Shown here piece by piece: positions 2 through 17,300 of a stretch of DNA of 57,279 bases (its first letter is position 1; every line of letters starts with the position of its first letter). The stretch comes from a virus (taxonomy: Duplodnaviria > Caudoviricetes). The stretch covers positions 1-57,279 of IMG/VR virus record IMGVR_UViG_3300021963_006667; one strand, given 5' to 3'. Both the position numbers and the translations under genes were made by a program. The notes under the pieces are model-generated. The model had not been told where the DNA came from. It did no database searches and saw only the letters and a program-made list of their open reading frames with translations.

Positions 2-2893
2 ACCATCAACGACGGTGCGGTGTATGTAAAGACGAGCGCATGGTTTACCGGTTCAACGACAGACATTCTCGGAACAACTGCGATCGTCACGTCAAACACG
101 ACCTTTACATCCAGCACGATGTTTGCTAACGTCGACTTGATCACGCTTGGCGCAAACGCATCCGATAGTCTTGTAGTCAACTCAATCGCCGACTTCAACT
201 CAAACACAAACGTTGATGGTATCCTTACCGTTACGGCCAACGCTGCATTCACGGGTACAAACACAACCTTTACCGCTATCGAAGCTACTGGTGAAATCAG
301 ACTCAAGGGTGCAGCAGCAAGAGTATTGAAGACTCAGAGCACTAGTGCAACTCTATACGACCTTCAAGTCGTACTTGCAAACACCGCAGGTTCGGTAACA
401 CCTCTTGTCGTTAACTCAACCGGTATTCTTCCAGGTGTTACTACGACGTTCGACATCGGTGGAACTTCATCACGTTGGAACAAAGGTTGGGTCAAAGATC
501 TTGACGTTGCGAACAGCGCAGTCATTACGAACCAACTATCAGTTTCCGGTAACGTTTCCTTCACGGGTGCTAACACGACCGTGACTGACCTTGAAGCTAC
601 CGGCGAGATCAGACTCAAGGGTTCTTCTGCTGAGACCATTAGAATTCAAAGTACTACCTCATCTCAACAGTCGCTTAACGTTGTGTTGACGAGTAACGCT
701 GCCGTAAGTATTACACCTCTTACGGTGAATTCGACTGGCATTATTCCAGGAGCCTCCGTAACGTTTGATCTTGGCGGAACATCCGCCCGTTGGAATAAAC
801 TTTGGGTAAAAGACATTGACGTTTCCTCCACAAGCGGTGTCGGTGTAAACCTGAGCGCTAACGTCGTTATTGGCAGAGACTTAAGCGTTTCTGGAAACCT
901 AGTTGTCTCTGGAACGACCACGCTTTCAAGCAACGTTGTACTTCAGGTCGCAGAATCAACATTTGCAAATAGCACCGTAACAAATCTATTCACTTTGGGT
1001 GCAGCGGCAAGGTTGAACTCTGATATTCTTCCGCAAACGACAACGACATACAACTTGGGTTCTACGACCCTGAGATATAGTAATGTATGGGCTTCAACGT
1101 TTACCGGCGCGCTTACAGGTAACGCGACTACTGCAACGACCCTTGAAACCGCAAGAACTATTAATGGCGTATCTTTCAATGGCTCGGCAAATATTACTGT
1201 AACAGCTAATACCACAAACACTCTTACACGCGGAACGTACCTAACCGGTTCAAACTTCAACGGCTCTGCTGCTACTACGTGGGCAGTCGATGCGACAGAT
1301 ACTAATACGGCTTCAAAGGTTGTTGTTCGCGATACAAACGGAAGTTTCTCGGCCAACGCGATCACGGCAACAACTATTACTGCGAACCTAACTGGTGCGG
1401 TAACCGGTAACGCAAGTACTGCGACGACACTTCAGACTGCAAGAACTATCAATGGTGTTTCTTTCAACGGTTCTGCGAACATCACGGTCACAGCAAACAC
1501 AAACGCTACCCTCACGAGAGGAACATATTTAACTGGTTCTGACTTCGATGGCAGTACCGCAAGAACTTGGTCAGTAGATGCTGATCCTGCGGCTACGGCT
1601 TCCAAGGTTGTTGCAAGAGATTCATCTTCTAACTTCGCTGCGAATACCATCACGGCTGCTCTATCTGGTAATGCAACCACTGCGACTACGCTCCAGACAG
1701 CAAGAACAATTAATGGTGTTTCTTTTAACGGTTCTGGTAACATCACCGTTACGGCAAATACTAACTCTACACTTACACGCGGAACGTATCTAACGGGTTC
1801 GAATTTTGACGGCTCTACTGCTACAACTTGGGCCGTTGATGCAACGACTACCGCAACCGCTTCGAAGATCGTGGCTAGAGATAGTCTTGGAAACTTTGCG
1901 GCTAATACTATCACGGCTGATTTGTCGGGTAATGCCTCAACAGCAACAACATTGGAAACTGCAAGAACTATTAATGGCGTCTCATTCAACGGTTCAGGTA
2001 ACATTACAATTGCTGCTAGTACCACAAACACTCTTACAAGAGGAGGGTATCTTACTGGTACTAACTTTAACGGATCCGCCGCCACAACATGGGCGGTCGA
2101 CGCCGATAGTGCTGCTACCGCTTCAAAGGTAGTTGCCCGTGACGCGTCTGCGAACTTTGCGGCAAACACCATCACGGCTACACTATTCTCAGGCTCTGGT
2201 GTATCGCTTACCTCTCTTAACGGCTCAAACATTTCTTCTGGTACCGTGGCTGACGCAAGAATTGCTACAACCCTAGTACGGACGTCTACCGCATTAACCG
2301 CTGGTGAAGGCATATCCGGCGGTGGCGACTTAAGCGCAAGTCGTCAGTTTGATGTTGATGCTACGGTTGTTCGTACCGCTAACACTCAGACGATTACCGG
2401 TGTAACCACGATGTCTAACCTTAGACTCAGCGGTGCCATGTTACCTACAGTAAACAATACCACTAACCTCGGTGCTGCAGGGAACGTATATCTTGCTGCT
2501 TACGCTACAACCTTCTACGGTACTGCAACATCTGCACAGTACGCCGACCTTGCAGAAAAATATCTTGCAGATGATGTGTACGACGTTGGCACTGTTATCG
2601 CAGTAGGCGGTGTGGCAGAAGTTACTGCGGCAAGTATCGACAACGCATCAGCGGTTCTTGGGGTAGTATCGGATAAACCTGCTTATCTCATGAACAGTGA
2701 ACTTGTTAGCGGTACCGCTATCGCACTGAAGGGACGTGTTCCAGTTAAGGTTACGGGCGAAGTGAAAAAGGGTGACAGACTTGCTCCTTCAACAACACCT
2801 GGTTATGCATGGGTAGACAACACAAGGGGTGCGTGGTCCTTTGCAATTGCGCTTGAAAATGGAAACAACATGGTAGAGGCTGTTATCCTCTAA
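2..2893 (+). CDS. Long tail-fibre-like protein with internal repeats and a C-terminal intramolecular chaperone/autoprocessing-type domain (5'-truncated)
   Basis: The frame is open from position 2, so the true start lies outside the window. The protein is Thr/Ala/Ser/Gly-rich with tandem repeats. The C-terminal YADLAEKY..D..Y..GTV..GG..EVT and ALKGRVPVKV.G.VKKGD.L motifs are typical of phage fibre chaperone domains. Confidence 0.8.
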   Translation, partial: TINDGAVYVKTSAWFTGSTTDILGTTAIVTSNTTFTSSTMFANVDLITLGANASDSLVVNSIADFNSNTNVDGILTVTANAAFTGTNTTFTAIEATGEIRLKGAAARVLKTQSTSATLYDLQVVLANTAGSVTPLVVNSTGILPGVTTTFDIGGTSSRWNKGWVKDLDVANSAVITNQLSVSGNVSFTGANTTVTDLEATGEIRLKGSSAETIRIQSTTSSQQSLNVVLTSNAAVSITPLTVNSTGIIPGASVTFDLGGTSARWNKLWVKDIDVSSTSGVGVNLSANVVIGRDLSVSGNLVVSGTTTLSSNVVLQVAESTFANSTVTNLFTLGAAARLNSDILPQTTTTYNLGSTTLRYSNVWASTFTGALTGNATTATTLETARTINGVSFNGSANITVTANTTNTLTRGTYLTGSNFNGSAATTWAVDATDTNTASKVVVRDTNGSFSANAITATTITANLTGAVTGNASTATTLQTARTINGVSFNGSANITVTANTNATLTRGTYLTGSDFDGSTARTWSVDADPAATASKVVARDSSSNFAANTITAALSGNATTATTLQTARTINGVSFNGSGNITVTANTNSTLTRGTYLTGSNFDGSTATTWAVDATTTATASKIVARDSLGNFAANTITADLSGNASTATTLETARTINGVSFNGSGNITIAASTTNTLTRGGYLTGTNFNGSAATTWAVDADSAATASKVVARDASANFAANTITATLFSGSGVSLTSLNGSNISSGTVADARIATTLVRTSTALTAGEGISGGGDLSASRQFDVDATVVRTANTQTITGVTTMSNLRLSGAMLPTVNNTTNLGAAGNVYLAAYATTFYGTATSAQYADLAEKYLADDVYDVGTVIAVGGVAEVTAASIDNASAVLGVVSDKPAYLMNSELVSGTAIALKGRVPVKVTGEVKKGDRLAPSTTPGYAWVDNTRGAWSFAIALENGNNMVEAVIL
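1115..2180 (+). repeat. Four tandem ~87-96 aa coding repeats (GNATTATTLxTARTINGVSFNGSxNIT...ASKVVxRDxxxxFxANxITA)
   Basis: Units begin near 1115, 1403, 1664 and 1925 (periods 288, 261 and 261 bp), with diverged synonymous sites. A separate pair of ~100 aa repeats (EATGEIRLKG...GGTSxRWNKxWVKD) lies at about 240-830. Confidence 0.9.
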
Positions 2894-2901
2894 GGAACAT
2901 T

Positions 2902-4920
2902 ATGAACGTTGTTTATGTGAACTACACTGTAAGAGACAGCGTATTTGATTATGCATGGCTCTCATTTAAAACCTACGTCGAAGATCACTATAAAGGCACG
3001 GCGAATTGGCATTGGCATTATCCAATCAGCGATTCCCGTGCCGATAGTCCAGAAGAACTAGCACAGAGAATATTACGACTTGACCCAAAGGTTGTGATGT
3101 TCTCTGTTTATGTTTGGAACGTCGGACTATCAAGAGAAGTTGCTCGAATCATCAAATCGCTTAGTCCCGAAATACACCTCGTATTTGGTGGCCCATACTG
3201 TGAGTACAAAGAAGATCCTGAGTACTTCACAAAATACCCATACATAGACTTCACTTGCCAGACGGACGGATACGGAGAACCTTTCATCAACGAGTTCCTC
3301 TATCAGGTAGAGACGGATCAAGACTGGAACAAGGTACCATACATGGTTCGAAAGGAAGGATACAGTCCTGTAACTTTCAACAAGCGTCAGTTTGAATGGC
3401 CGAAGAGAATCTTTGAGCGCAACTCTGACTACCTTCAAAAGGTAAAGGACGAACGCACCGGTTCCATCACCCTCATGACGATCTATGAGACGCAGCGCGG
3501 ATGCCCATACGGATGCACGTTCTGTGAATGGAGTGGCGGTATCAACTCAAAGGTTGCGTTTAAGCCAAGCGAAGATGTGATCGAAGACTTCACATGGCTC
3601 GCTAAAAACGGTTTCCTTGAGGACCTGCACATGGTAGAAGCAAACCTTGGCCAACTCGACAGGGACGTGATGCTCGTCGAGGAGTTGTGTAAGATCAAGG
3701 CAGAGTATGGAGTACCGAGAGACGTTATCCTTGCAGGACTCAGCAAGTCAAAGAAGTCAAACGTATATAAGATCGACAGACTTCTGGCTGCATCAGGACT
3801 TTCTAACGGATTCAAAATCTCGATGCAGGACATGGATCCACAGGTACTCAAGAACATCGAACGCGTGGACGAACCTTGGGAAAAGCAGTTCAAGGCATAC
3901 AACGAACTACGTGACGAGTTCGGAATCAAGCTAAGAGCCGAGATGATTCGTGGACTTCCTGGCACCACGCTCAATAGTTTCTATGAGCAGGCCGGAGAGA
4001 TGGCAAAGCACGGAGTTTTCTGGGATAAATACACGTGGCATCTTCTGCCTACGTCTCCTGCATCAAACCCTGAATACATGCAGAAGTTTAGCATCGAGGC
4101 GATAGACCTGATGACCGACTCAATGAAGGGTTCTGCATTCAACGCAAAGATGATCGACGAAGACAAGTTCACGGAGATCGGCGGACTCATCAACGATCAG
4201 AGATTCATTCAGCCGTCAAAGATAGTCGTATCCACCATGTCGTATACAAAAGAAGACTACGCCGAGATGGTCGTTTCGGACGGGATCATATTTGCCATGG
4301 AGACCGAGGGCTATCTGTCCAGGATAACAAAGTATCTCGACTCGAACGGGGTGCCACATTCGGTATTTTACAAAAGGTTCTATGATACCTTCATAGACCA
4401 GAAGTATCTTCAGCCTATCCAATTTACTGTGCTTAAAGCAATTATACAGCAGGCGTTGGACAAAGTACATCAAAAAAGCGCGGCTCCCTTCGAATACTAC
4501 AAACTCGAAGGGTTGCCATGGAACATCTACGCAAAGATCCCAACACTTATCAACATCATGATCAACGTCAACCGGGTTGAGTTCTACACCTCGATTCTTA
4601 GGTGGATCGTCGATGAGTTTGGAAGCGATCCTAAGTTGGATGACCTGATCGGTTGGTCCATGAATTCCGTGAAGTGGATAGACTACGACCCAACGAAACC
4701 GACCTCGTTCGTAACACAGTTTGACTGGACTGCGAATGAGTTGGTTGAAGGAACCTATATCAACACACCTTCAGACACACTCTACTCGAATGAAAACATG
4801 GACATCGATTGGCACCTATTGACGATGGAAAATCGAGTGAAGCAGTATTTTATTCGGCTATGCGCATTGCATGGTAGTAACAAGATGTTTGAGCATTTGA
4901 GGGTTACCCATGCTGAATAA
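2902..4920 (+). CDS. Cobalamin (B12)-binding radical SAM enzyme (class B methylase-like)
   Basis: N-terminal VMFSVYVWN...LVFGGP resembles a B12-binding domain. It has ETQRGCPYGCTFC (CxxxCxxC) and later IRGLPG and LLPTSP motifs. Confidence 0.85.
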   Translation: MNVVYVNYTVRDSVFDYAWLSFKTYVEDHYKGTANWHWHYPISDSRADSPEELAQRILRLDPKVVMFSVYVWNVGLSREVARIIKSLSPEIHLVFGGPYCEYKEDPEYFTKYPYIDFTCQTDGYGEPFINEFLYQVETDQDWNKVPYMVRKEGYSPVTFNKRQFEWPKRIFERNSDYLQKVKDERTGSITLMTIYETQRGCPYGCTFCEWSGGINSKVAFKPSEDVIEDFTWLAKNGFLEDLHMVEANLGQLDRDVMLVEELCKIKAEYGVPRDVILAGLSKSKKSNVYKIDRLLAASGLSNGFKISMQDMDPQVLKNIERVDEPWEKQFKAYNELRDEFGIKLRAEMIRGLPGTTLNSFYEQAGEMAKHGVFWDKYTWHLLPTSPASNPEYMQKFSIEAIDLMTDSMKGSAFNAKMIDEDKFTEIGGLINDQRFIQPSKIVVSTMSYTKEDYAEMVVSDGIIFAMETEGYLSRITKYLDSNGVPHSVFYKRFYDTFIDQKYLQPIQFTVLKAIIQQALDKVHQKSAAPFEYYKLEGLPWNIYAKIPTLINIMINVNRVEFYTSILRWIVDEFGSDPKLDDLIGWSMNSVKWIDYDPTKPTSFVTQFDWTANELVEGTYINTPSDTLYSNENMDIDWHLLTMENRVKQYFIRLCALHGSNKMFEHLRVTHAE

Positions 4921-5479
4921 GATTGTATTAGCGATGAATATAGAGGTCAACGAGGTCTATGATATTAGAAAGCGAACCAACGGCAGATTAAGTAACGCTT
5001 TTGTCGAGTATTGCATCGAAGACTCGTATGTCCGAGAGCGTGCACTCAAGAATCTTGTCGCAAATAAAGTCGATCGTAAGGTTGTTGAAGCGTTCAAGGT
5101 TTTAGACCTACAAACAGTATTTTCTTCCGTTCCAGATGACGAGTTAGTTGACTTTTTTGAGAAGATGTGTTATAAGATAAACGATATGATCTATATTAAG
5201 TTTGAGGCTGACACGTTTAAGGGATTCGATCTTCACGGAAAGATTGTATTGCCAGTAGTCTATTCTGGTAATCGTCCGGTTACCAAACATAAGTACATTG
5301 GATGGGTGACTCCTCATAACATCGAACACCTGTTAGAGCATGAGAAGATCACGGAAGACGTTGCAACCAAGGTGCAACTAAAATACGCAGAGATGCTACG
5401 TAAACATAAAGACGAATTCGACGTATTTTTTGACGGCTCTCCTATAGAGGAAGTTTTGGAGTATATCAACAATGATTAA
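4910..5479 (+). CDS. Hypothetical protein in the radical SAM cluster
   Basis: 189 aa ORF overlapping both neighbours by 8-11 nt; no motif recognised. Confidence 0.7.
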   Translation: MLNKIVLAMNIEVNEVYDIRKRTNGRLSNAFVEYCIEDSYVRERALKNLVANKVDRKVVEAFKVLDLQTVFSSVPDDELVDFFEKMCYKINDMIYIKFEADTFKGFDLHGKIVLPVVYSGNRPVTKHKYIGWVTPHNIEHLLEHEKITEDVATKVQLKYAEMLRKHKDEFDVFFDGSPIEEVLEYINND

Positions 5480-6485
5480 TTGGGCATTCACTTGGTCTTC
5501 ACGTAGAGCACCTGCGTGGGAAAACTGCAACGACGCAATGAACCTTGCCGTTGGACCTGAGTGGGTCTTTGGTGACTACTACCTACCGGTAAACACTCGG
5601 TATTCCGGCTCTCCTCTGAAGGAGTTTAAGGACGATGAGCGCATAAAACTTCTTAACGCACCGGCAGTAGATCAGTTCGAGGCGGAAACGTTCAAGTACG
5701 TCATAGAAGAGAATAGGTCTGGATACAACCTAGAGGTAGCCGATCGTGTAGGACATTTGATCCTTAAGGAACACGCGACTCCAGACATTTTACTCACCGA
5801 ACAAAATAGTCGTGTCATAGACCTGGACGAGGTTTACAAATACCTTCAGGAATATGATTGGGTCGCACTCGGAATCAAATTCAACAACATCGAGATCAGC
5901 GACAAGACGATCATGGCGAAGTCGTTCTTCTATGCCCGCGATAAGGATCTGAAGTTGGTAAACCTGTCAGGTCAGAATCAACCTTACAACGACGTCTCAT
6001 CGATCCCTGCTATAACGTATTGTGTGTTTAAGAAGACGAAGAACGTGGGTCTGGTCAACTGCATTGTAAACCCACACCTTGTTTCCGTTCCGCATATGGA
6101 TTCTAGGGTGTATGGAGATAAGCATCACGTGTTCGCACTCGACGCGTTTGACTCGACGATCGAGGACTACTTTCTTAAACCTACCATCGTTGGAAGCGAC
6201 ACTAACATCATCAACAACAACGTGATATTCACGAACGTGCAGTTCCAAATGTTGGAATATGAGGCGTCATTTTACCACATCCGTAATAAGTCGTACATAC
6301 CCTTTCCGAGAACGATTAAAACAAATTTAGGTGTAACTACGATCGGAAACGTGATAAGTATAAACCCAACTCGCCATTACGGGTACATATCCATAGAATA
6401 CGACGTTGACTCTATGATAAATAGCTATGGAGTTGCCTCTCAGGTAGGCAAACACAAAATTGAATACACCGTAATTAGAGGATAA
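5472..6485 (+). CDS. Hypothetical protein in the radical SAM cluster
   Basis: 337 aa ORF coupled to its neighbours; no motif recognised. Confidence 0.7.
   Translation: MINWAFTWSSRRAPAWENCNDAMNLAVGPEWVFGDYYLPVNTRYSGSPLKEFKDDERIKLLNAPAVDQFEAETFKYVIEENRSGYNLEVADRVGHLILKEHATPDILLTEQNSRVIDLDEVYKYLQEYDWVALGIKFNNIEISDKTIMAKSFFYARDKDLKLVNLSGQNQPYNDVSSIPAITYCVFKKTKNVGLVNCIVNPHLVSVPHMDSRVYGDKHHVFALDAFDSTIEDYFLKPTIVGSDTNIINNNVIFTNVQFQMLEYEASFYHIRNKSYIPFPRTIKTNLGVTTIGNVISINPTRHYGYISIEYDVDSMINSYGVASQVGKHKIEYTVIRG
6416..6423 (+). promoter_or_regulatory. Possible variant late promoter (GATAAATA) upstream of the 64 aa HxH/Cys peptide gene
   Basis: One mismatch to TATAAATA, ending 67 nt before the ATG at 6491. 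Confidence 0.35.
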
Positions 6486-6490
6486 CTATC

Positions 6491-6685
6491 ATGGTTGCCG
6501 ACGTAACAAGCACCTTTACAGCGAATAATACGGTCACCCCGACGAAGGCAGTAGGTTCAACCATCGATGCCGCTTCCTTTAGAACGATGGTGAACACGCT
6601 CGACGCGCTGATTCAACACAGTCATACGTTCACCGATGACTACACCTCAAACTGCCAGTGCAACTGTCAGCGAGGCAGCATCTAA
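6491..6685 (+). CDS. 64 aa HxH-motif protein with C-terminal CxCxC; candidate radical SAM substrate (precursor-like)
   Basis: Preceded by the RBS GAGGA. Ends HSHTFTDDYTSNCQCNCQRGSI and abuts the SPASM enzyme gene with no gap. Confidence 0.75.
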   Translation: MVADVTSTFTANNTVTPTKAVGSTIDAASFRTMVNTLDALIQHSHTFTDDYTSNCQCNCQRGSI

Positions 6686-8335
6686 GTGACCGACAATTAT
6701 GTGAACGTGAAAAGAGTTCTAAGCGAAGCTCAAAAGAAACGCTTAGAAAACCATACACCGTCTGTTGTCGAACAGGATGGTAAATTAGTCACAACCTTTG
6801 AGACGATAAACATCTCAGGTAAGGGACAAAAGACAAACAAACTCATCACGGTCCTTCCCGCAGCGCAGGAACAGGCTGTACCGTTTGCGGATGCAGAGTT
6901 TTTGTATCGTGACCTGATACAGGTTAACGCGATGTTAACGAACGCGTGTAACCTCAGTTGCTCCTACTGCTACGAACAACACAACAAAGACTTCGGTAGA
7001 TTTACAAAAGAATCCCTTAAGCAAGTCTATGATTGGATGAACTCCCGTAACAACGGTAAGAAGAAGGTGTTCCAATTTTTTGGAGGTGAACCTCTCATCC
7101 ACAAGCCTTTGATCAAAGAGTTTATCGAGACTTATGACGAAGAGTTGTCGGGCAACTACAAAGATTATCGTGGCACCTACATTTCGATGTGTACAAATGG
7201 ACTTCTATTAAATGACGAGTTCATCGAGTTCTATTTCGGTAAGCCATACACGCACATGATGTTGAGTCTCGATACGCTGAATTCAGCAATCGATCACAGA
7301 GAGATCACGCCGGCTCAGTTAAACAAGGTTCTCAAGAGTATAGACAAGATCGTGGAAGTTCTTGGAGATGACGCGAATCGACTCGTGATTCGTGCCACCC
7401 TGTCACAAGAGACCTCGCGTGACATGAAGAACTTCATCGAGACGCTGTATGAGCATGGTGTTAGAAACATGGTTGTTCATCCACTTGTACTCGACTCAAA
7501 GCATGGTTACATCTCATGGAAAGATGAGAACTGGCAGAACATGAGAAGTTCTATCTTCGGTGCCCTTGAGAAGTATGATGACCTTTACATCAGATTCTCT
7601 GAAGGCGTTGGCCTGAAGGAAGATAGTAACTGTATGGTCGGTTCACACATGGTTGCCATCGACGCATCCGGTGACTTCTCGGGTTGCTACTTCTTCACCA
7701 ACCAGAAGTCTAACGGTGCAGACATTGCCGTTCTCGGAAACGTATTCCAGGACCGAGTATACATAGATCGGTACAAGAAGTTCCAAAGCGCCTATCAGGA
7801 GATGTTCGATACCGAGGAGCAGTGCAGAACCTGTGACTATCAGGATGCCTGTTATCAGTGTCCTGCCGGTAACATGGATACCGGATCGAGAATCTTCCGG
7901 CCTGACGATATGTGTCAAAAGATCGTAAAGCTCTACGTCGACTTTCAACACGACGTCGCAAAGAAACTATTCATGCGTCACGTGAAGAAGAGATTCGACC
8001 GAGTTGAAAAGCACGGTGAAAAGGTATTTGCCGCCGAGTTGCAATACTTTTATGATAAATTTAATGGAGAAGGTGTCGATGATTTTGAACATTATTTGCG
8101 GATTGATTTGCCTCATTATTCTGATGTCATTCGTGCCTGGTCCGTGGACGGCAAAACCGAAGCCACCGATCTACATTCGCTCTACAACATCCTCGCAAAA
8201 AGATTCGACAAGCCAAGAATCGATATTGAAATCACATCTGACTTCGTAAAGTGTTATTACATCCAATGCATATCGACGATCATCTTCGACAAGAACAGAA
8301 TGAACGAAGTCAAACTTACGACTTTGCTGGAATAA
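6686..8335 (+). CDS. Radical SAM/SPASM-domain protein
   Basis: CNLSCSYC, FFGGEPL and TNG motifs; SPASM-type cysteines CMVG...GC...CRTCDYQDACYQCPAG...C; N- and C-terminal extensions. Confidence 0.9.
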   Translation: MTDNYVNVKRVLSEAQKKRLENHTPSVVEQDGKLVTTFETINISGKGQKTNKLITVLPAAQEQAVPFADAEFLYRDLIQVNAMLTNACNLSCSYCYEQHNKDFGRFTKESLKQVYDWMNSRNNGKKKVFQFFGGEPLIHKPLIKEFIETYDEELSGNYKDYRGTYISMCTNGLLLNDEFIEFYFGKPYTHMMLSLDTLNSAIDHREITPAQLNKVLKSIDKIVEVLGDDANRLVIRATLSQETSRDMKNFIETLYEHGVRNMVVHPLVLDSKHGYISWKDENWQNMRSSIFGALEKYDDLYIRFSEGVGLKEDSNCMVGSHMVAIDASGDFSGCYFFTNQKSNGADIAVLGNVFQDRVYIDRYKKFQSAYQEMFDTEEQCRTCDYQDACYQCPAGNMDTGSRIFRPDDMCQKIVKLYVDFQHDVAKKLFMRHVKKRFDRVEKHGEKVFAAELQYFYDKFNGEGVDDFEHYLRIDLPHYSDVIRAWSVDGKTEATDLHSLYNILAKRFDKPRIDIEITSDFVKCYYIQCISTIIFDKNRMNEVKLTTLLE

Positions 8336-9369
8336 GATCTGTTACGATCTATCTTGGCGATACCTGTAACTTTGATTGCGTCTATTGCGACCGTGCATAT
8401 ATTAAGCACGACATTGGTTCACAGAATCTAAACAAGGCAGACTTCGACGACATCATAGAGTTTATGAAGGTCGTAAAGGAACAGGCGAAAGACCTAAAGG
8501 CAATCTCGTTCCATGGCGGTGAACCGTTCTTGTATGTAAAAAGAATGGACGAACTACTTGACGCGCTTGATCCGATCTTCGGAAAAGACATGGAGTACTA
8601 CATCACATCGAACGGTTCGAAGATCGTCGAGAACGAATGGTTCTTTCAGAAGTGGCCAAAGATCCATATCACCCTGAGCTACGACTTTAATTATCAGCTT
8701 GTCAATAGGGAATATGTAGACCTAAAAGCAATCTCGGAAGTGATCTATCGTAACGACTGCTACATGATGTTTCAGTTCGTGATTCCACCAGATGGGTTCC
8801 ATGAGGATACTTTAGCCGAGGTGATCAGATCGTGTAAACTTGCTCGTTGTGATACGATTAACATCATTCCGCTTCGACACCATCGTGGTGCAAGAAAGTT
8901 CAAAGTCCTTATTGACGATTTTAACATGAAGTGGTATAGTGTTTATTTGATGCGGTTCATCCATACTTTGTATGTCCAGGGAATCACGCTCAACATAGAT
9001 GGCAACTATCACGGAATCGACAAGCAATATCTCAACAATCACAGCAAGATGATCCTGAGTCCGGATGGATACGTGTATCCAGAGTTTGACTACCTTGAAT
9101 ATAAGCGAAAGGAATTCAGGATCGGCAAGTGGAAGGGTGGAATCGAACTCGACCGAGTCAAGGACGAGAACCAATTCATTCTTCCAGGTTGCGTGACCTG
9201 CCACATGAGGGACGCGTGCGGGTTGAAGTACCTATACAAGATGTTTGATGAAGAACCGAAAGGAAACTGCGTCGACTTCTACACAACGATCAACCTGATG
9301 GTGAAACACCTTCACGCCTTGAAACAGAAGCCCACGTTGATGCATTGGATTGGAATCGGAGATGGATGA
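8266..9369 (+). CDS. Radical SAM protein with a partial SPASM-like C-terminus
   Basis: CNFDCVYC, FHGGEPF and TSNG motifs; C-terminal CVTCHMRDAC...C. The start is ATG 8266 or GTG 8251, overlapping the upstream gene. Confidence 0.85.
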   Translation: MHIDDHLRQEQNERSQTYDFAGIRSVTIYLGDTCNFDCVYCDRAYIKHDIGSQNLNKADFDDIIEFMKVVKEQAKDLKAISFHGGEPFLYVKRMDELLDALDPIFGKDMEYYITSNGSKIVENEWFFQKWPKIHITLSYDFNYQLVNREYVDLKAISEVIYRNDCYMMFQFVIPPDGFHEDTLAEVIRSCKLARCDTINIIPLRHHRGARKFKVLIDDFNMKWYSVYLMRFIHTLYVQGITLNIDGNYHGIDKQYLNNHSKMILSPDGYVYPEFDYLEYKRKEFRIGKWKGGIELDRVKDENQFILPGCVTCHMRDACGLKYLYKMFDEEPKGNCVDFYTTINLMVKHLHALKQKPTLMHWIGIGDG

Positions 9370-9871
9370 TCTGTACAAAGCTGCGTGCAGGGTGAAGACC
9401 ATCATGCCGATGAAGTATTACGACTGGAAGCAGTGGCACGAATGGCCGTATCGAACGATCGGTGACCATATCGTCCATGACGAAACCATCATCGATGTCG
9501 GTGCCGGCTGTGGGTTCTTGAGCATGCACCTTCTTATGACCGGTAAGTGTGACAAGGTTATTGCGTACGATACCCGCGAGAACATGTGCGAGTTTATGTC
9601 GTTGCTAAGTAATACGTTGGGTCTGGCCACACGCCTTGAAGTAAGGTGCGAACCGTTTCAAAGTAACCGACACGACAACTTGACCGTCTCGACCAGACTC
9701 GGGTTTTCAAACCTGCTACTCAATAACAAGGCTCAGACTATAACTATGGCTCGTACGAGAGAGTGCGAACCTATCATGAGATACGTCGAAACTCCAGATG
9801 ATTGGAACGAGAAGGTCGTTACGAGAGATGATGGATTTACTATGAGGTTGTTATGGAACTATCGAGAATAA
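9362..9871 (+). CDS. Class I SAM-dependent methyltransferase
   Basis: IIDVGAGCGFLS motif I followed by VIAYD. ATG 9362 overlaps the end of the upstream gene. Confidence 0.75.
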   Translation: MDDLYKAACRVKTIMPMKYYDWKQWHEWPYRTIGDHIVHDETIIDVGAGCGFLSMHLLMTGKCDKVIAYDTRENMCEFMSLLSNTLGLATRLEVRCEPFQSNRHDNLTVSTRLGFSNLLLNNKAQTITMARTRECEPIMRYVETPDDWNEKVVTRDDGFTMRLLWNYRE

Positions 9872-10224
9872 TTCTACTCTATAACGATGAATTCGAGATC
9901 CCACTCGAAACCGTTTACGGAGTGGTGTACATGGTTCCAGGATTAACGAAGCAGTTTCCCTGGTGGATTCGTCGGTTCTGTATTGAAGGCTATGACTATA
10001 ATAGTCCAGACTTTGAAGTCGTAGGAACAGGAGTTTCATCCGTAGTCGGGACACCATTAACGGAGAAGGCACACGAGTATCGTAAATCGATCTTCGGCCA
10101 ACGATGGATCGAAGATCTTAACTATGAGATCGTCTCAACCTTTCCTCCGCTTAGAGGGGTTAGCGTTCAGGGAGACGACTACACTCTTGATTCGGATTTA
10201 ATGAGGATACTACAGAATGTCTGA
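9853..10224 (+). CDS. Hypothetical protein
   Basis: 123 aa ORF overlapping both neighbours within the operon. Confidence 0.6.
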   Translation: MELSRIILLYNDEFEIPLETVYGVVYMVPGLTKQFPWWIRRFCIEGYDYNSPDFEVVGTGVSSVVGTPLTEKAHEYRKSIFGQRWIEDLNYEIVSTFPPLRGVSVQGDDYTLDSDLMRILQNV

Positions 10225-11353
10225 TGAGGGCGAAGAGTTCCGTAAGTTTAAAGACCACAATACGTACTTTGTGACAGAAGACGCGTTGATGCCACTGCAT
10301 CATGATATAACGTTTAGCCCGACTCGTAAATACTATTGTGGCGCAAATTGTCAAGTTTGTTACATCAAGAAGAAACTAAAGGCACATCTACCGTATTACG
10401 CCGAAGCCATACCCGAAAAGATCACGGTCGAAGACGAAAAGAGATGGTTCGAGATTTTTGAATACTTCTACGTGATTCGAGTAGTCGATGACCTGAAGTT
10501 TTTGAAGGAACACTATCCTCACATCTATGGATGGTACAAAGAACACGCCTCGATCTTTGAGTACGGTATGACTGACAACGCGATCGTTCAGCAGCATGAA
10601 ACTCTCATGGAGTTGGACATGAAGAGTTTGTCCGAGGTCGCTCTGAGCGAAGAGTTCATGAACAAGGTAAACTCGAAGAAGAACTACAACAGGGTGATGG
10701 AGATCCTTCAGAGTTACATCGACAAATACGACCTACACAAGATCAAGGTAATCAAGACTACAAACGAAGAGTTACCTTATCATGCGAGGGAGTTGGTCGA
10801 GTGGATCAACAATAAAGGAATCGTTACGTCTCTGCATAATGACTATCGTAAAACCAATGTAGATGACAACGAACTTGGTAACATTGACCATGACTTAGCC
10901 GGACTCTTCGACTATCAGAATAGTCACGTCCTATGTTACAACGACCGAACATATCAGGTCTATCGTGGATCGTTGCACTTATACGGAGATCGATTCTTCT
11001 ATAGTATCGATGATGCCACCGATATTAACTGGGAACCGTTTCATACTATGAATGGCGACTTTGACCATCAGAAGTTTATGGTCGATATGATCCAAGGCAA
11101 GTTCGATCTGTACTCAAAGTTTGCCGATGAGTTGAAAAATGCTGGAGGTGGTACCGCCGAAAAATTTCGAAGCTACTATATAAATACTACTGACAGCTTT
11201 ATGGTGAACGGCGACTTCAACTTCATACCCAAGATCATGTTAAGTGAAAACTCGAAATACTACAACAAACTGGTAGAGCTTGGGTATCGTCCAACTGAGG
11301 TTGGGTTGTACCTACCTGGAAGCTCACCCAAACCAATCATCGGATTTAGGTAA
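10217..11353 (+). CDS. Divergent radical SAM-like protein
   Basis: N-terminal YYCGANCQVCY (CxxxCxxC) in the usual position; no GGEP motif and no SPASM cysteines. Confidence 0.6.
   Translation: MSDEGEEFRKFKDHNTYFVTEDALMPLHHDITFSPTRKYYCGANCQVCYIKKKLKAHLPYYAEAIPEKITVEDEKRWFEIFEYFYVIRVVDDLKFLKEHYPHIYGWYKEHASIFEYGMTDNAIVQQHETLMELDMKSLSEVALSEEFMNKVNSKKNYNRVMEILQSYIDKYDLHKIKVIKTTNEELPYHARELVEWINNKGIVTSLHNDYRKTNVDDNELGNIDHDLAGLFDYQNSHVLCYNDRTYQVYRGSLHLYGDRFFYSIDDATDINWEPFHTMNGDFDHQKFMVDMIQGKFDLYSKFADELKNAGGGTAEKFRSYYINTTDSFMVNGDFNFIPKIMLSENSKYYNKLVELGYRPTEVGLYLPGSSPKPIIGFR
11179..11186 (+). promoter_or_regulatory. T4-type late promoter TATAAATA upstream of the 123 aa HxH protein gene
   Basis: Exact consensus inside the 3' end of the upstream gene, about 170 nt before ATG 11359. 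Confidence 0.6.
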
Positions 11354-11358
11354 AGACA

Positions 11359-11730
11359 ATGGCATCATATTCAAATACGACATCGGTTGCTGTCGCGACA
11401 TCGCTAAGAACAACATATACAACACCGTTGTTGGCGCAAATTGCAAGTGGTAATACCGTGCAAGCGGCGCATATGACCATGCTTAAAAACTTTGCAAATG
11501 CGATCTTGGTTCATACGCATACGTTAACGGATTACTCACAAATTAAAGAATTTGGTAATACTAATGCTAGTGCGTTTACGGTTGATACTGTTCCCCAAGT
11601 ACCAAGCGCTAACGTCGGTGCAACATACACTGCTGGAAACGTAATCGGCGCGAACGAATACACCGAAATTAGAGTAGCTGTTGAAGCTCTAAGAGTACAC
11701 AGCCATACATGGGATGATGCAATAGTATGA
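11359..11730 (+). CDS. 123 aa protein made of two HxH-motif modules homologous to the 64 aa peptide; candidate substrate or virion protein
   Basis: Contains the HTHTLTD and HSHTWDD modules. It is Thr/Ala-rich, and its stop overlaps the next start (ATGA). Confidence 0.75.
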   Translation: MASYSNTTSVAVATSLRTTYTTPLLAQIASGNTVQAAHMTMLKNFANAILVHTHTLTDYSQIKEFGNTNASAFTVDTVPQVPSANVGATYTAGNVIGANEYTEIRVAVEALRVHSHTWDDAIV

Positions 11731-13001
11731 TGCAACTACCTTGTTATGAACTCAGTGATGGTAGTTCGTTTTATTATGACTCTCACTCAAATACTATTTA
11801 CAACACAGAAGGCGAGCAATTAAGTTTGCCGCCTTCAAAAGCTATTGAATACTACGAATTAGAAGCAGCAAACCATGGGGTGGATTATAAGGTCAACAAC
11901 CCGTTTGCGATTCGTATCCTTCTCGGACATGCGTGTAACTACAACTGCACCTATTGCATGCAGAAAGATATTGGTAATCCGTTAGAGAGACCACAATCGA
12001 TTTATACCGAATCGTTTATTGCTAACATCAAGAAGAATCTAAACCTTGATAGGTTGAACAGAATTGAACTTTGGGGTGGAGAACCTTTCCTATATTGGAA
12101 AGACATGGTCGAGATCATGAAGTTCTTTGATTCTCCCAATAGAGAGTTCTTCATATCAACAAATGGTTCGGCATTTGTACAAAAACACGTTGACTTTTTC
12201 CAAACGTTGAAATCTACAATCTTAATCAGCTGTAGTCATGACGCTGTAGGCCAAAAAGAACTTCGTGGTGACGACATCCTTGAGAACCCAAAGAAGGTCG
12301 ACATCATTAAGAAGATGTTGGCTCTTCCGAATGTACAACTAGGGTTCTCGTCGGTGGTTAGCAATCAGAACCACGACCTATATGCAATCAACGACTACTT
12401 CAAGGAATTCTGTGACCGTGAAGGAATCGAGAACATGAAGATCACCTTCATCCCGGCAAAAAACTATGACGTTCATGACACAGAGATGGCTTCGTCGAAC
12501 TACATTCTGCGTGGTGAAAAGTTGAAAGCGTTCGCTCAACACCTATACGACTTCACACAAGATTCGTTCAACGATCGTACAAGATTCCTACGCAACAACA
12601 TCCTGTACTCGCCCGAGGGTGTGGTGGACTACGCTAAATTCCTGAGACAACAGACTCCGATCACGACCAAGTCTGGCTGTGGTGCAGACTCAAACGACGT
12701 TTTATCGGTTGACATTCAAGGAAACGTTCGCTTATGCCCGCACACCGATAGTAGCTTCATTGCTGGTAAGCTGGAAGATGTAGGTTCGGTAAAGATCAAA
12801 GGCATGGATCTTGCTCGTAAGAAGACTCACTGCATGAAGTGTCCGGTGAAACGACTCTGCAGATCGTCATGCCCTATCAAGTTTCCAGACCACGTGTTCT
12901 ACTCTAACTGCGCACTCGAGAAGGTCTGGTGGGGAAACATCCAACTTCACGCATTTAAATTATTATTCGGACAAACCGTGTCCATGAAAGAGGCAGCATG
13001 A
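11727..13001 (+). CDS. Radical SAM/SPASM-domain protein
   Basis: CNYNCTYC, LWGGEPF and STNG motifs; SPASM cysteines CGAD...LCPH...CMKCPVKRLCRSSCP...C. Confidence 0.9.
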   Translation: MMQLPCYELSDGSSFYYDSHSNTIYNTEGEQLSLPPSKAIEYYELEAANHGVDYKVNNPFAIRILLGHACNYNCTYCMQKDIGNPLERPQSIYTESFIANIKKNLNLDRLNRIELWGGEPFLYWKDMVEIMKFFDSPNREFFISTNGSAFVQKHVDFFQTLKSTILISCSHDAVGQKELRGDDILENPKKVDIIKKMLALPNVQLGFSSVVSNQNHDLYAINDYFKEFCDREGIENMKITFIPAKNYDVHDTEMASSNYILRGEKLKAFAQHLYDFTQDSFNDRTRFLRNNILYSPEGVVDYAKFLRQQTPITTKSGCGADSNDVLSVDIQGNVRLCPHTDSSFIAGKLEDVGSVKIKGMDLARKKTHCMKCPVKRLCRSSCPIKFPDHVFYSNCALEKVWWGNIQLHAFKLLFGQTVSMKEAA

Positions 13002-13744
13002 AACTTAACAAATCACTCATCGAAGAGCATACGTCGATGCTACGCAACCACTCGTTGCTCGTGACCAACAACATCCAAAGCAAAGACGACCTTCGAATCT
13101 TTATGGAACATCACGTGTTCGCCGTCTGGGACTTCATGTCTTTGTTGAAGACTTTGCAAAACGAAGTCGTTCCAAGCAAGACCCCGTGGATGCCCACCCG
13201 TGGGACACGTTCCGACATTGCAAGGATGATTAACGAGATCGTGACCGGTGAAGAGTCTGACATCGCACCAGGCGGAGGATCGATCAGTCACTTCGACCTA
13301 TATCTTCAGGCGATGCTTGAGGTGAATGCAGACACAAGTTCTATTACATCATTTTTGAAGAACCTAGAATGGTCTGGCACCATTCCATACCAACTTGCAC
13401 CAAAACCGGCAGAGAAGTTTATGCGAAACACGTTTGGTACCATTAATCGTGGACCGCACTGTGTTGCTGCTTCGTTTGCATATGGCAGAGAAACCATCAT
13501 TCCTGATATGTTCACTCGACTATTAACCCAACTCAATATCAGTCAACTTGATGCGCCAAAGTTTCATTATTACCTGCAGAGACACATTGAGGTCGACGGT
13601 GATGAACACGGTCCAATGTCTGAGCATCTCGTTGAATATTTCTGTGACGACGATCCTATTAAGGTTCACGAAGCCGAACAATCAGCGATTGCAGCCATCA
13701 AAGCACGTATTGACTTCTTCAACGACATAGAAAAGCTCCTGTAG
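12998..13744 (+). CDS. DUF3050 family heme-oxygenase-like (putative diiron) protein
   Basis: MEHHVFAVWDFMSLLK, INEIVxGEESD, SHFDLYLxAM, FAYGRE and YLQRHIEVDGDEHGP motifs. Confidence 0.85.
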   Translation: MKLNKSLIEEHTSMLRNHSLLVTNNIQSKDDLRIFMEHHVFAVWDFMSLLKTLQNEVVPSKTPWMPTRGTRSDIARMINEIVTGEESDIAPGGGSISHFDLYLQAMLEVNADTSSITSFLKNLEWSGTIPYQLAPKPAEKFMRNTFGTINRGPHCVAASFAYGRETIIPDMFTRLLTQLNISQLDAPKFHYYLQRHIEVDGDEHGPMSEHLVEYFCDDDPIKVHEAEQSAIAAIKARIDFFNDIEKLL

Positions 13745-13752
13745 ACGATTCT

Positions 13753-13760
13753 TATAAATA
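13753..13760 (+). promoter_or_regulatory. T4-type late promoter TATAAATA
   Basis: Exact consensus in the intergenic gap, followed by the AAGGAG RBS. Confidence 0.85.
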
Positions 13761-13785
13761 GTCATAGAACTTAAGGAGATATTCT

Positions 13786-14118
13786 ATGGCTATTAAAGCG
13801 AATTTAGTTATCGATCAGGGCACTTCTTTTAGTGCTACAGTTGACGTAACAGATACTGGTGGTGCGGCTTATAACCTTACCGGATACACTACCGCTGCTC
13901 AAATGCGTAAGAATTATAACTCTTCAAGCGCCGTAACTTTCTCAACTTCACACAACGGTGCATATGGTCAAATCACGTTATCGCTCAACGCCGCTAATAC
14001 AGCGGTTCTTGAGCCTGGACGTTACCTATACGACGTTGAGATTACGTCTGGAAGTGCTATCGTTACTCGAGTCGTCGAAGGAATCGTAACTGTTACACCT
14101 GGAATGACGAGAATCTAA
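13786..14118 (+). CDS. Virion structural protein (baseplate/fibre-attachment-like)
   Basis: ANLVIDQGTSF...AQMRK...GRYLYDVEI...RVVEGIVTVTP, a pattern common in T4-like phage structural regions; late promoter upstream. Confidence 0.7.
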   Translation: MAIKANLVIDQGTSFSATVDVTDTGGAAYNLTGYTTAAQMRKNYNSSSAVTFSTSHNGAYGQITLSLNAANTAVLEPGRYLYDVEITSGSAIVTRVVEGIVTVTPGMTRI

Positions 14119-14119
14119 C

Positions 14120-14365
14120 ATGACTATAAAGGCCACAGTCACTCAAAATGGGAAAACAACTGCTAAGGTAACACCTCAGCAGAACATACTCGTAACTAAC
14201 TATCAGGTAAGTTCGAGTAATATCACCCTAAATGATCTAGTTGACGTTGAAGTAGGCAATCTTCAAGATGGCGCGCTATTATCATATAATCAAAATACTC
14301 AATCTTGGAAAGCTATTACCTCTATAGAGAATCCAAACACAGAAGTTAATGGAGGCTTCTTCTAA
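14120..14365 (+). CDS. Small virion-associated protein
   Basis: LNDLVDV...DGALLSYN...W motif typical of fibre repeats; coupled to the next gene. Confidence 0.65.
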   Translation: MTIKATVTQNGKTTAKVTPQQNILVTNYQVSSSNITLNDLVDVEVGNLQDGALLSYNQNTQSWKAITSIENPNTEVNGGFF

Positions 14366-17300
14366 TGTCACTCATTCGTATTAAAAGATCAGGCACTTCT
14401 GGATCGCCTTCAGCACTTGCACAAGGTGAAATGGGATATTCGTTCTTTGCTGGAACCCAATCAAACGGCGGCGACCGTCTTTATATTGGTACCGGCACTG
14501 AAACAGGTGGTGTAGCTGCAAACATTGAAACCATTGGAGGTAAGTATTTTACCGCTAAGTTGAATCATGTTCCGGGCGTATTAACTGCAAATGCGGCAAT
14601 CATCGTCGATGCAAGCTCTAAGATCGACACACTCAACATCTCTAACATCACGATTACCGGCAACACGATCAGTACGACCGCTACAAACGCGACCCTGATT
14701 CTGGCACCAAACGGTACCGGTGTTATCGACGTTTCTGGTAAGCGTGTTATCAACAGCGCTGCTCCTGTCGCAAATACCGACCTCGTAACTCTTGGACACT
14801 TGAATAACACCTATACCGGCGTTCTTAACATTGCTGGTGATGCTGGAACCGACGCAATCTCTCTAACTTCAGAGACGTTGTTGGTAACCGGTGGCGTGGG
14901 TCTTTCATCCGCAGTTACGGCCAACACGATTACGGTAAACCTTGACAATACCACAGTAACCGCTGGATCTTATGGTGCCGCTGGTTCCGTTGGTACATTC
15001 ACTGTTGATGCTCAGGGTCGACTTACCGCTGCTGGCGCAACTACAATCTCGATCACTTCGGCTCAGGTCAACGACGCGACTGCTCTTGCAACCGCTTCAA
15101 GAATCGTCCTTCGTGACGCTTCAGGAAACTTTGCAGCTAACACGATCACAGCCGCTCTGGCCGGTAATGCTACCACAGCGACCACATTGGCCACGACCCG
15201 TACTCTCTGGGGTCAAAACTTTAACGGCGGTGCAAACGTAACAGGTTCGCTCACATCAGTCGGCGACATTACTGGTACCGCTGGTGTAACACTTACCGCA
15301 ACTGCAGGAACCCTTGCTCTTGCAGCCACAAGTACAAACGTAATCACACTATCGACAAACGCGACTGAAACCCTTCGCATCTCTGCGAACAACAACGTTG
15401 GTATTGGTAACACCACACCAGCCGATAAACTAAGTGTCACTGGTACGTCAAACTTCACTGGTAACATGGCACTCGGTGCAAACGTTGCTATTACCGGAAC
15501 GGTTACTTCGGGAACTTGGCAGGGTTCTATCGTTCAACCTACTTATGGTGGAACTGGTAAGTCAACTCTTCCAGCCGCATTTGCTGCACTAAGTGGGTTT
15601 ACAACGACAGCAACAGCAGCTGGTACAACGGTATTATCAAACACTTCAACCTCTTACCAGATATTTACCGGTGCGACTACTCAAACCATTACGCTTCCTA
15701 ATACGAGCACTCTGGCTACCGGTTGGTTCTTTGAGATTCAAAATAACTCGACTGGCTCGCTTACTATCAACTCGTCTACGGCGGTTAACATCGTTCCTGC
15801 AACTGTGGCCATTGCTGGCACAAGCGTTAGAGTCACATGTATCTCTATCGCGGATAACACAGCAGCCGCGTGGGACGTTGAGGTTGTAGGATTCAGTTCG
15901 TTCACCGGTACTGGTGCGTTTGCACGATCTTTAAGCCCAACTATCACAACTCCTTCCATCACGTACTCCACGTCAGCTGCGATTACCGCTGGTACTAACG
16001 CTCAGGGTCAAGGTGCTCTTACCTCTGACTACAACGTTGTAACGACAACTACCGCTAACCCATCTGGCGTGACGCTTCCAACCGGCGCAACCGGGCGTGT
16101 TGTTACTGTCGTGAACAGGGGAACCAACCCCATCACGATCTATCCAGCAACCGGTGGAGTGATTGATGCTCTTACAACAAACGCTGCAATTACACTTCCT
16201 GTAGGAAGAGAACTTACTTTCAAAGCGTCATCCGCTACTCAATGGTATTCTACGTATAATCTATCAACCGGTCTTGCAGATACGGCAACGATCCTTGCTA
16301 CGACTCGTACGCTATGGGGTCAGAACTTCAACGGTTCTGCTAACGTCACAGGCGACCTAACCTCCGTGGGTAACATAACTGGAACTGGTGCCGTTATCAT
16401 GACGGCAACTGGTGCAAACCCAATAACTTTTGTCACAAATAGCGTTGAAACTCTCAGAGTATCGGCCAACAACAACGTAGGTATTGGCAACACCGCTCCT
16501 GCAGATAAACTAAGCGTCAACGGTACAGCGTACTTTGGTGCTCCAGTTAGAATGGCAGCAAACGTTCAGATCGATGGTACCCTTACAGTCGGCGGAAGTA
16601 CAACTGTTATTAACGCGACGAACCTCTCTGTATCTGATAACATGATTTATCTGAACAACGGTTCAACGGCTACGATCACTGGAGCAGTTTCAAACGGTAC
16701 GACGTTCGTTTATACCGCGCAGAATAACTATAACACAAGCATGGTTGTGACGGTAACTGGAGTTAACCCATCAGGGTTTAACGTTACCGGTGCAACCGTA
16801 ACAGCTGCGAACTCAACAAGCTTCACGATTGCGAACACTTCTTCTCCGGGTGCATACGTAAGCGGTGGTAGTGCAACGGCTAAAACTTCTGCGTATCCAG
16901 ACCTCGGTATTGCTGGTGCATATAACGACGGTACGTATGCTCACGCTGGTATCTTCAGAGATGCTACCGACGGACGTTGGAAGTTCTATCATGGCTACAC
17001 GCCGGAACCAGACGCATCGGTATTCATCGACACCGCAAACAACTCGTTTACACTTTCGGACGTTCAAGCTTCTACGTTTATCGGGGCACTTACCGGAAAC
17101 GCTACAACCGCAAGCTCTGTTAACAACTCAGTAACGTTCAACAACGGTGGATCCGGTGCTGCATCTGGTACCACATTTAATGGTTCCGCAGCTCAGACAA
17201 TCTCGTATAACACGGTTGGTGCGTCTCCACTTGCTGGTTCTACGTCACTTACCACCCTTGGTACAATTGCGACCGGTACATGGAACGGTTCTATTATTGG

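Follow-up and report, generated by a model that had tools for sequence, protein, structure and literature searches.

The 64-aa open reading frame (ORF) pep64, located in a 57,279-nucleotide stretch of viral DNA (IMG/VR record IMGVR_UViG_3300021963_006667, positions 1 to 57,279; hereafter the window), is a real, conserved phage gene whose product ends in a ladder of alternating cysteines. The peptide lies amid tail-fibre genes and is accompanied by a ~300-aa protein and by radical S-adenosylmethionine (SAM) genes, usually four, an association that recurs in viral, cellular-genome and metagenome loci. This cassette is a phage-borne, fibre-linked form of the maturation of peptides or proteins by radical SAM enzymes, and the enzyme first assigned to the peptide probably has to be revised. 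Judged from gene association, the clade of rSAM424, a radical SAM/SPASM enzyme of the same cassette, is the one most tightly tied to the ladder. In the explanation that best accounts for the whole, pep64 would be matured by a cassette of several radical SAM enzymes that take it as their substrate, its ladder would be cross-linked, and the product would be a matured, fibre-related protein; confidence in this combined reading is evenly balanced.

Residues 52-64 of pep64 (TSNCQCNCQRGSI) correspond exactly to positions 6644-6685, stop codon included, and they hold C55, C57 and C59, the only cysteines of the protein, which confirms that all three cluster at the C-terminus as proposed from the sequence in the initial annotation. 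The ladder reads N54-C55-Q56-C57-N58-C59, so that N54-x-x-C57 overlaps with Q56-x-x-C59, each being an N/Q-x-x-C unit. A Shine-Dalgarno-like GAGGA motif is found about 9 nt 5' of the pep64 ATG, and the gene for rSAM549, a second radical SAM/SPASM enzyme, begins at the first base past the pep64 stop codon. The 123-aa protein encoded further downstream (pep123) is a partial paralogue of pep64 (BLASTP 12/30 identities, 40%, E 7e-6), and the earlier observation that it contains zero cysteines was confirmed on its reading frame. A lone CxCxC motif in the window is not rare by chance: the DNA pattern TGYNNNTGYNNNTGY gave 7 matches against 4.95 +/- 2.15 expected, and 7 or more were obtained in 26 of 100 shuffles. 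The bare pattern being unremarkable, the significance of the tail rests on its conservation.

This conservation is seen at several depths. A word-indexed search yielded 29 close clusters, all of 54-68 aa, in which residues 25-64 are near-invariant and residues 1-24 variable; C55, C57 and C59 are invariant among them, and Y51 is invariant in two 29-row alignments. Across 43 more diverse members, H43, H45 and D49 never vary, and at least 90% keep C55, C57, C59 and G62. The family plan consists of a variable N-terminus rich in Thr, Ser and Ala, an amphipathic helix, the motif HxHxxxDxY, a (Cys-X)n ladder and usually an RGx(L/I/V) end. When 1.84 billion representatives were searched with a profile, free of ascertainment, 66 matches were obtained, of which 55 have at least three cysteines after the last HxHxxxD, 2 have one or two, and 9 have none. 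The nine ladder-free matches are four two-module proteins of the pep123 type, two with three modules and three short ones (52-54 aa) with a single module. Cysteines before the last module number just five in the 66 matches, all within four matches that lack the Cys tail. At the DNA level, codon choice for Cys and His varies synonymously in 72 distinct tails, the first Cys being TGC in 32 and TGT in 40. This pattern also bears on the proposal that the Cys-free region is leader-like. It is not a typical leader: the first ~22 residues are variable, and in the C-terminal half of the region, with the helix and HxHxxxDxY, conservation is no lower than that of the cysteines.

The ladder itself varies in length and in its spacer residues. 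Of the distinct tails, 137 altogether, six longer than 40 aa were set aside; in the 131 short ones that remain, 38 carry three cysteines, 29 four, 39 five, 16 six, 3 seven, 5 none and 1 a single one, a distribution biased by the fact that most tails come from CxCxC-selected loci. The residue between ladder cysteines is Asn in 167 cases, Gln in 129, Ala in 38, Glu in 32, Asp in 24 and others in 11. The module is also reused in other architectures. Proteins of the pep123 type contain the helix-HxHxxxD module twice, without a ladder, and fused forms place two or three modules before a ladder (P0087, P0099, P0100, P0105, P0064). P0095 combines module and ladder with a poly-Pro linker and then a Cys-containing domain of ~190 aa, and P0125 has ~150 aa ahead of the module. 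A search of limited reach for long fused module forms yielded 4 proteins of 206-256 aa.

Two smaller peculiarities of these peptide genes were observed. In P0092 and P0121, a linker splits the ladder, so that the last Cys and the RGxL end resemble a separate unit. Two alleles of the peptide gene (L020:9869-10489, + strand, and P0126) carry an apparent mini-intein of ~135-140 aa inside the Cys ladder; the insert begins with Cys, ends in ...T(K/M)N and is followed by the next ladder Cys, and its Pfam Intein_splicing match is weak (E 0.051). An intein within a protein of ~70 aa is unusual. A search of limited reach for long ladder-ended ORFs at family loci gave none except the intein allele.

The distribution of the family was followed with a degenerate DNA pattern for HxHxxxDxYxxxCxCxC, scanned against IMG/VR, with membership decided by a helix-plus-motif test. 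The peptide is held by 55 viral loci (of 77 pattern matches in IMG/VR), by at least 35 metagenome loci (the true ones among the 117 matches listed) and by four cellular-genome loci (of 72 pattern matches in 185,579 species genomes). The last group consists of an Ewingella americana isolate, a Bdellovibrio metagenome-assembled genome (MAG) and two phage-like bins, three of the four being MAGs. The gene order peptide, rSAM549, rSAM372, r378, rSAM424 is conserved across loci. At the 43 IMG/VR loci with at least 6.5 kb of downstream sequence, tblastn found rSAM372 in 43, rSAM424 in 43, rSAM549 in 41 and r378 in 40, and the genes for the DUF3050 protein in 24, for pep123 in 15 and for the B12 enzyme in 12; these loci were not de-duplicated and paralogues cross-match in such counts, and the gene maps still show separate genes.

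Fibre or baseplate genes adjoin the cassette in T4-like phages, in RP12 and in Ewingella; in Bdellovibrio it lies near Peptidase_S74-ended proteins. The Ralstonia jumbo phages RP12 and RP31 are the only isolated phages with the cassette. They are related to phiKZ, and in the available text of their genome paper the cassette genes are given merely by homology (PMC5468394). In RP12 (AP017924.1, L001:7941-8138), a 65-aa peptide homologue that is not annotated in GenBank lies between ORF074 and ORF075. The prophage-like region of Ewingella americana E4 encodes a two-module fused peptide after baseplate-wedge and tail genes. In the Bdellovibrio MAG (L113, L274; G001:C108), the full cassette lies amid the cellular genes BamE, histidine kinase and FabH. 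Three proteins with pilin-like N-termini, one of which has a Pfam N-methylation-motif match, and with the fibre-chaperone domain Peptidase_S74 at the C-terminus are encoded about 1.5-5 kb from it, as is a second r378 paralogue.

The enzyme that accompanies the ladder most constantly was identified from clusters of different gene content. Reduced clusters (L023 and L060, viewed over +/-9-10 kb, and L166 and L203, viewed partly) retain the CxCxC peptide, a protein of the 123-aa type and the one of 300 aa, and their only radical SAM genes are the rSAM424 orthologue and the B12 enzyme. The rSAM424 orthologue is the only SPASM-type enzyme retained there together with CxCxC, and the peptides of these four clusters have Gly runs or ...LGNGCNLV at their C-terminus in place of RGxL. 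An IMG/VR scan for CNCNCNC further revealed many proteins that lack the HxH module and end in (Cys-Asn)n ladders; the 11 of them that were scanned gave PHROG tail-fibre families in 7 cases and no match in 4. The 26 radical SAM ORFs at 24 other ladder loci all have rSAM424 as their best match, with 56-140 bits against 33-59 for rSAM549 and rSAM372. These best matches and the retention in reduced clusters point to the rSAM424 clade as the constant companion of the ladder. The window shows the same pairing within a few kb, and rSAM549, rSAM372 and r378 form a trio that travels together and was found here only with RGx(L/I/V)-ended peptides. Consequently, the assignment of the two enzymes encoded directly after the peptide (rSAM549 and rSAM372, the latter taken from 8266) as its modifying enzymes is probably wrong, since rSAM424 fits the ladders better. 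The related suggestion that the second SPASM enzyme, next to the Cys-free paralogue, needs different chemistry finds no support in gene order, given that rSAM424 is tied to Cys ladders across phages.

The tail-fibre proteins with (Cys-Asn)n at the extreme C-terminus measure 307-616 aa (L307, L335, L330, L306, L336, L275, L276). At each of these seven loci, an rSAM424-like gene is located about 1-3.3 kb downstream.

rSAM549 has Pfam Radical_SAM and SPASM domains, and across 29 homologues its C88/C92/C95, C316, C334, C380, C383, C389, C392 and C410 are invariant, with C237 conserved in at least 90%. Its model (predicted local distance difference test, pLDDT, 82) contains an extra helical domain at 409-548 and an N-terminus formed by a hairpin and a helix, with residues 1-32 at low pLDDT. 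Its nearest solved structures are CteB (5WHY/5WGG), then SkfB, anSME, ChlB, TigE and SuiB. For rSAM424, the TIGR04085 SPASM domain scores right at its cut-off (27.2 vs 27 bits). The CX3CX2C motif of r378 is also present in three homologues (RP12, Ewingella, Bdellovibrio); the likeness of r378 to radical SAM proteins in language-model features (0.95, with few shared features) is a lead only. A predicted complex of rSAM549 with pep64 was also considered and was not used as evidence: its interface score (ipSAE) was weak, 0.32 (runs 0.22, 0.37 and 0.32), with the best of three controls at 0.00. Of 157 solved complexes, 116 reach this ipSAE mark, as do 2 of 215 mismatched pairs, but scores of at most 0.60 occur in only 18 of the 157 solved ones; the rSAM549-pep64 runs shared at least 29% of contacts, with partner pLDDT of at least 38.

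The second constant partner of the peptide is u337, the 337-aa protein encoded immediately upstream. A hidden Markov model (HMM) built from the ~300-aa ORFs that adjoin the peptide matches u337 at E 3.5e-22, and in 56 of 59 loci the peptide has a gene of this type directly upstream or downstream; of the three loci without one, one is cut by a contig end. The family is extremely divergent and very fast-evolving, with 22% column identity and zero invariant columns. Compared with Pfam, 35 members matched no family apart from one spurious match at E 0.01. The u337 model (pLDDT 88) has two domains, of which the C-terminal one (229-337) is an immunoglobulin (Ig)-like sandwich. Foldseek against the PDB gave nothing at E<=0.001, with the N-terminal domain (1-228) barely covered; matches in VIA-wide were limited to the common Ig-like C-terminal domain (Z at most 7.4), and the sole good match in BFVD was the RP12 homologue. 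These fold comparisons pointed to no function.

The reality of the gene, its conservation, its linkage and the kinship of the enzymes are shown by these data; the thioether chemistry, the pairing of enzymes with residues and the fibre-related role are inferred. In the proposed mechanism, the Cys/(Asn, Gln) tail would serve as a dense N/Q-x-x-C array in which a SPASM enzyme converts the units into intramolecular thioethers of the ranthionine type, at the beta- or gamma-carbon. An auxiliary Fe-S cluster would hold the thiol, and the 5'-deoxyadenosyl radical would take a hydrogen from the adjoining Asn or Gln. rSAM549, rSAM372 and r378 could introduce further modifications on the tail or on the HxHxxxDxY module. 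The product would be retained as a small mature protein that acts with its variable 337-aa neighbour in the fibre (host-recognition) apparatus. A sacti-type hairpin, joining Cys to distant acceptors in the helix, was also considered and was inseparable from local N-x-x-C links by the tools used.

Known systems provide partial precedents. As described in the available text on NxxcB (PMC9389541), this enzyme links Cys through a beta-thioether to the Asn that lies three residues upstream, with Ala, Gln and Asp tolerated as acceptors. The ladder spacers N, Q, A and D coincide with these acceptors, and the spacer Glu lies outside the set given there; the likeness is one of motif, and NxxcA, the substrate in this streptococcal system of radical SAM-modified peptides that are made by ribosomes and modified after translation (RaS-RiPPs), differs in being a short secreted peptide with one motif. 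CrpC, a SPASM enzyme of Methanococcus voltae, puts ranthionine links on the protein CrpA according to the available text of PMC13692751, which likewise makes a Cys-rich protein, not a short peptide, the SPASM substrate. That system differs in that rSAM549 reaches 52 bits against the TIGR04463 cut-off of 525, and in that CrpC has a RiPP recognition element (RRE), is archaeal and acts on the motifs CAGM, CAVD and CPLV. On the basis of the acceptor overlap with NxxcB and of the action of CrpC on a whole protein, thioether cross-linking of the ladder is the best-supported mechanism and a plausible one.

The closest relatives of rSAM549 point in the same chemical direction. PapB, the ranthipeptide maturase that is its top NCBIfam match (NF047865, E 5.6e-33), joins Cys to a carboxylate- or carboxamide-type neighbour in PapA (freyrasin); rSAM549 scores below the cut-off and is no member of that family, and the PapA repeats are C-x3-D, not C-x-C. 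CteB is the best solved match (phmmer E 5e-14, Foldseek E 7.6e-15) and is a radical SAM/SPASM enzyme that forms thioethers on the Cys-rich C-terminal core of CteA (the SCIFF, six cysteines in forty-five residues, peptide thermocellin). The identity to CteB is 18%, the rSAM549 model lacks a full RRE and has an extra C-terminal helical domain of ~140 aa, and the precursors are unrelated, as pep64 combines an HxH module with an alternating ladder and lacks a GG-type leader. The radical SAM/SPASM enzyme QhpD, which serves the maturation of quinohaemoprotein amine dehydrogenase, joins Cys to Asp or Glu in QhpC, a small subunit retained in its enzyme complex; the match to this family stays far below its threshold (69.6 bits against a cut-off of 453), and dehydrogenase partners are absent. 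The earlier view of pep64 as a sactipeptide- or ranthipeptide-type precursor thus survives in part: the Cys tail is conserved and locked to radical SAM/SPASM enzymes with thioether-forming relatives, and a free sacti- or ranthipeptide is disfavoured by the lack of a detected peptidase or exporter family and by the fibre setting, which recurs in several lineages.

Several results weigh against this explanation as a whole. All radical SAM proteins of the window score below curated family cut-offs, the best being the PapB match at 114.6 bits against 340, and the His-Xaa-Ser enzymes are not reached either (HxsB, TIGR03978, 68.6 vs 370 bits; HxsC, TIGR03977, 29-30 vs 268). The rSAM549 model contains no complete RRE, and the 13 cluster ORFs gave no PF05402 (PqqD/RRE) match at E<=0.01. 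The ladder persists in clusters without rSAM549, which makes adjacency a poor guide to the substrate. Searches of limited reach found no long fibre protein that combines the HxH module with a ladder. The cassette proteins ORF68-76 are not among the 32 gel-band proteins of the RP31 virion proteome in the available Table S3 of PMC5468394, where the search set did not include the 65-aa ORF and where cross-linked peptides would escape standard searches.

An unlikely rival is that pep64 is a metal-site protein, a helix trimer in which HxH (with D49/Y51) and the ladder bind Fe, Zn or an Fe-S cluster, the cysteines remain free and the enzymes act elsewhere. His and Cys are classical ligands, so that HxH plus CxCxC suits metal equally well, a further point against cross-linking; H43, H45 and D49 are the sole family-wide invariants, with Cys at 90% or above, and the Cys-free pep123 keeps HxHxxxD twice. 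The cassette is located among fibre genes, and HxH motifs bind metal ions in the T4 gp37/gp12 fibres; the likeness to these tips, an invariant HxH in a small protein encoded beside fibres, is at the level of the motif only. The idea that HxH motifs of the window fibres are the radical SAM target was rejected, as none is present in the four fibre-like proteins checked (20-2893, 14365-17979, 18031-18825 and 18837-21749) or in three accessory ORFs. A metal site would not need four or five co-inherited radical SAM enzymes, a number of cysteines varying from three to seven is odd for a defined site, and other fibre ends carry ladders without HxH, each time in the company of an rSAM424-like enzyme. 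That the ORF is a chance one and CxCxC mere noise between two genes draws on the commonness of the pattern in the window, and it can practically be dismissed in view of the 29 close clusters of homologues, the 66 profile matches, the synonymous codon variation, the Shine-Dalgarno-like motif 5' of the ATG and the in-frame mini-intein in two alleles.

A classical diffusible RiPP, with an N-terminal leader, a CxCxC core of the sacti- or ranthipeptide kind and release on lysis as an antibiotic or signal, is improbable. It would explain why a small peptide is followed by SPASM enzymes whose nearest relatives are CteB, PapB and SkfB, and it accords with the chromosomal copy in the Bdellovibrio MAG, where six flanking ORFs have no PHROG match. 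Opposed to it are the 13 cluster ORFs with no peptidase, exporter or RRE family; the near-invariance of the core and of the last 25 'leader' residues next to ~22 variable first residues, the reverse of most leader/core pairs; the fused variants P0095 and P0125, with their added domain and N-terminal extension; and identical ladders at the ends of true tail fibres in other phages. Very doubtful, too, is a peptide-derived cofactor or small molecule comparable to pyrroloquinoline quinone (PQQ) or mycofactocin, for which conserved residues such as D49 and Y51 would be cross-linked and the product excised and tailored by the DUF3050 oxidase and methyltransferases. D49 is invariant and Y51 nearly so, several radical SAM enzymes stand alongside the haem-oxygenase-like DUF3050 protein, and PqqC has a fold akin to haem-oxygenase-like proteins; however, DUF3050 occurs in just 24 of the 43 loci, no protease was detected in the cluster, and a varying number of Cys repeats and multi-module fusions are ill-suited to one fixed cofactor. 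Set beside these rivals, a cross-linked ladder on a cassette substrate remains the preferred reading. Pfam, PHROGs and NCBIfam gave no leader peptidase and no transporter or exporter family among the 13 cluster ORFs (2902-14118). The product is therefore probably retained in mature form, and a small protein of the fibre apparatus is more likely than a free ranthipeptide.

Known radical SAM thioethers are those of small secreted peptides, of the enzyme subunit QhpC and of the archaeal protein CrpA (2026). Here a four-to-five-gene set of the same enzyme class stands in the fibre modules of unrelated phages, including T4-like phages of marine and fresh waters, jumbo phages of Ralstonia and a prophage of an enterobacterium, and close to fibre-like genes in a Bdellovibrio MAG. 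If the ladder is cross-linked and located on the fibre, this would represent a new kind of virion maturation with bearing on host recognition and particle stability, and a large radical SAM family would gain defined, tiny substrates. More tentatively, and with some doubt, it may be proposed that tailed phages and at least one predatory bacterium staple a Cys/Asn ladder onto their host-recognition apparatus, either at the fibre tip itself or on a 64-aa HxH tip subunit with an Ig-domain partner. A full-text literature search on phage radical SAM enzymes, RiPPs, thioethers and tail fibres, with subscription journals outside its scope, returned nothing on the cassette, and titles and abstract openings of the DUF3050 literature mention no phage radical SAM cassette. 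As far as their available texts go, the Thermus phage 'rSAM module' (bioRxiv 10.1101/2024.08.14.607894) and the radical SAM gene of cyanophage S-SCSM2R (PMC12801897) are different systems.

Table 1. Genes and sequence elements of the cassette and its flanks in the window.
Feature	Position	Strand	Remarks
Tail-fibre protein	20..2893	+	Upstream flank of cassette; PHROG
B12-binding radical SAM protein, KedN5-like far below cut-off	2902..4920	+	Accessory in full clusters, retained in reduced ones
189-aa unassigned accessory ORF	4910..5479	+	
u337, 337 aa, very divergent unnamed family	5472..6485	+	Adjoins peptide gene
pep64, 64-aa Cys-ladder protein	6491..6685	+	T/S/A-rich variable N-terminus, amphipathic helix, HxHxxxDxY, (Cys-X)3, RGSI end
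HSHTFTDDY motif of pep64	6617..6643	+	H43, H45, D49 family-wide invariant
pep64 core TSNCQCNCQRGSI and stop codon	6644..6685	+	Overlapping N/Q-x-x-C units
rSAM549, 549-aa radical SAM/SPASM enzyme, 7-8 conserved auxiliary-cluster Cys	6686..8335	+	
rSAM372, 372-aa radical SAM enzyme, partial (twitch-like) C-terminal Cys/SPASM motif	8251..9369	+	
173-aa methyltransferase-like accessory ORF	9350..9871	+	Sub-threshold Pfam matches
123-aa unassigned accessory ORF	9853..10224	+	
r378, 378-aa divergent radical-SAM-like protein, phrog_36229, CX3CX2C motif	10217..11353	+	
pep123, 123-aa Cys-free paralogue, two helix-HxHxxxD modules	11359..11730	+	
rSAM424, 424-aa radical SAM/SPASM enzyme, full 7-Cys SPASM pattern	11727..13001	+	
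DUF3050 (haem-oxygenase-like) protein	12998..13744	+	Frequent accessory gene
110-aa phrog_1084/phrog_3304 protein	13786..14118	+	Downstream flank; tail-fibre-like genes next

PHROG matches to tail fibres, large terminase, sheath, portal, major head protein, helicase and an SbcC-like nuclease identify the window as a T4-like myovirus, and its major head protein has counterparts of up to 70% identity in myophages of the Sinorhizobium phiM12 type, of Methylophilales and of Pelagibacter. The 11-kb block that holds the peptide gene is enclosed by fibre or fibre-like genes on both sides (Table 1). A megablast comparison of the cassette with isolated phages gave no match, and neither did tblastn of pep123 against phages. 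Two accessory ORFs (9350..9871 and 9853..10224) had no tblastn match at E<=1e-5 across the 55 viral loci, and both are absent from L005. The genes are tightly packed: rSAM372 and rSAM549 overlap by 70-85 nt (8251-8335), depending on whether the start of rSAM372 is taken as GTG at 8251 or ATG at 8266, and gene ends overlap at 11727-11730 and 12998-13001 as well. Given these overlapping ends, the cassette genes may be translationally coupled.

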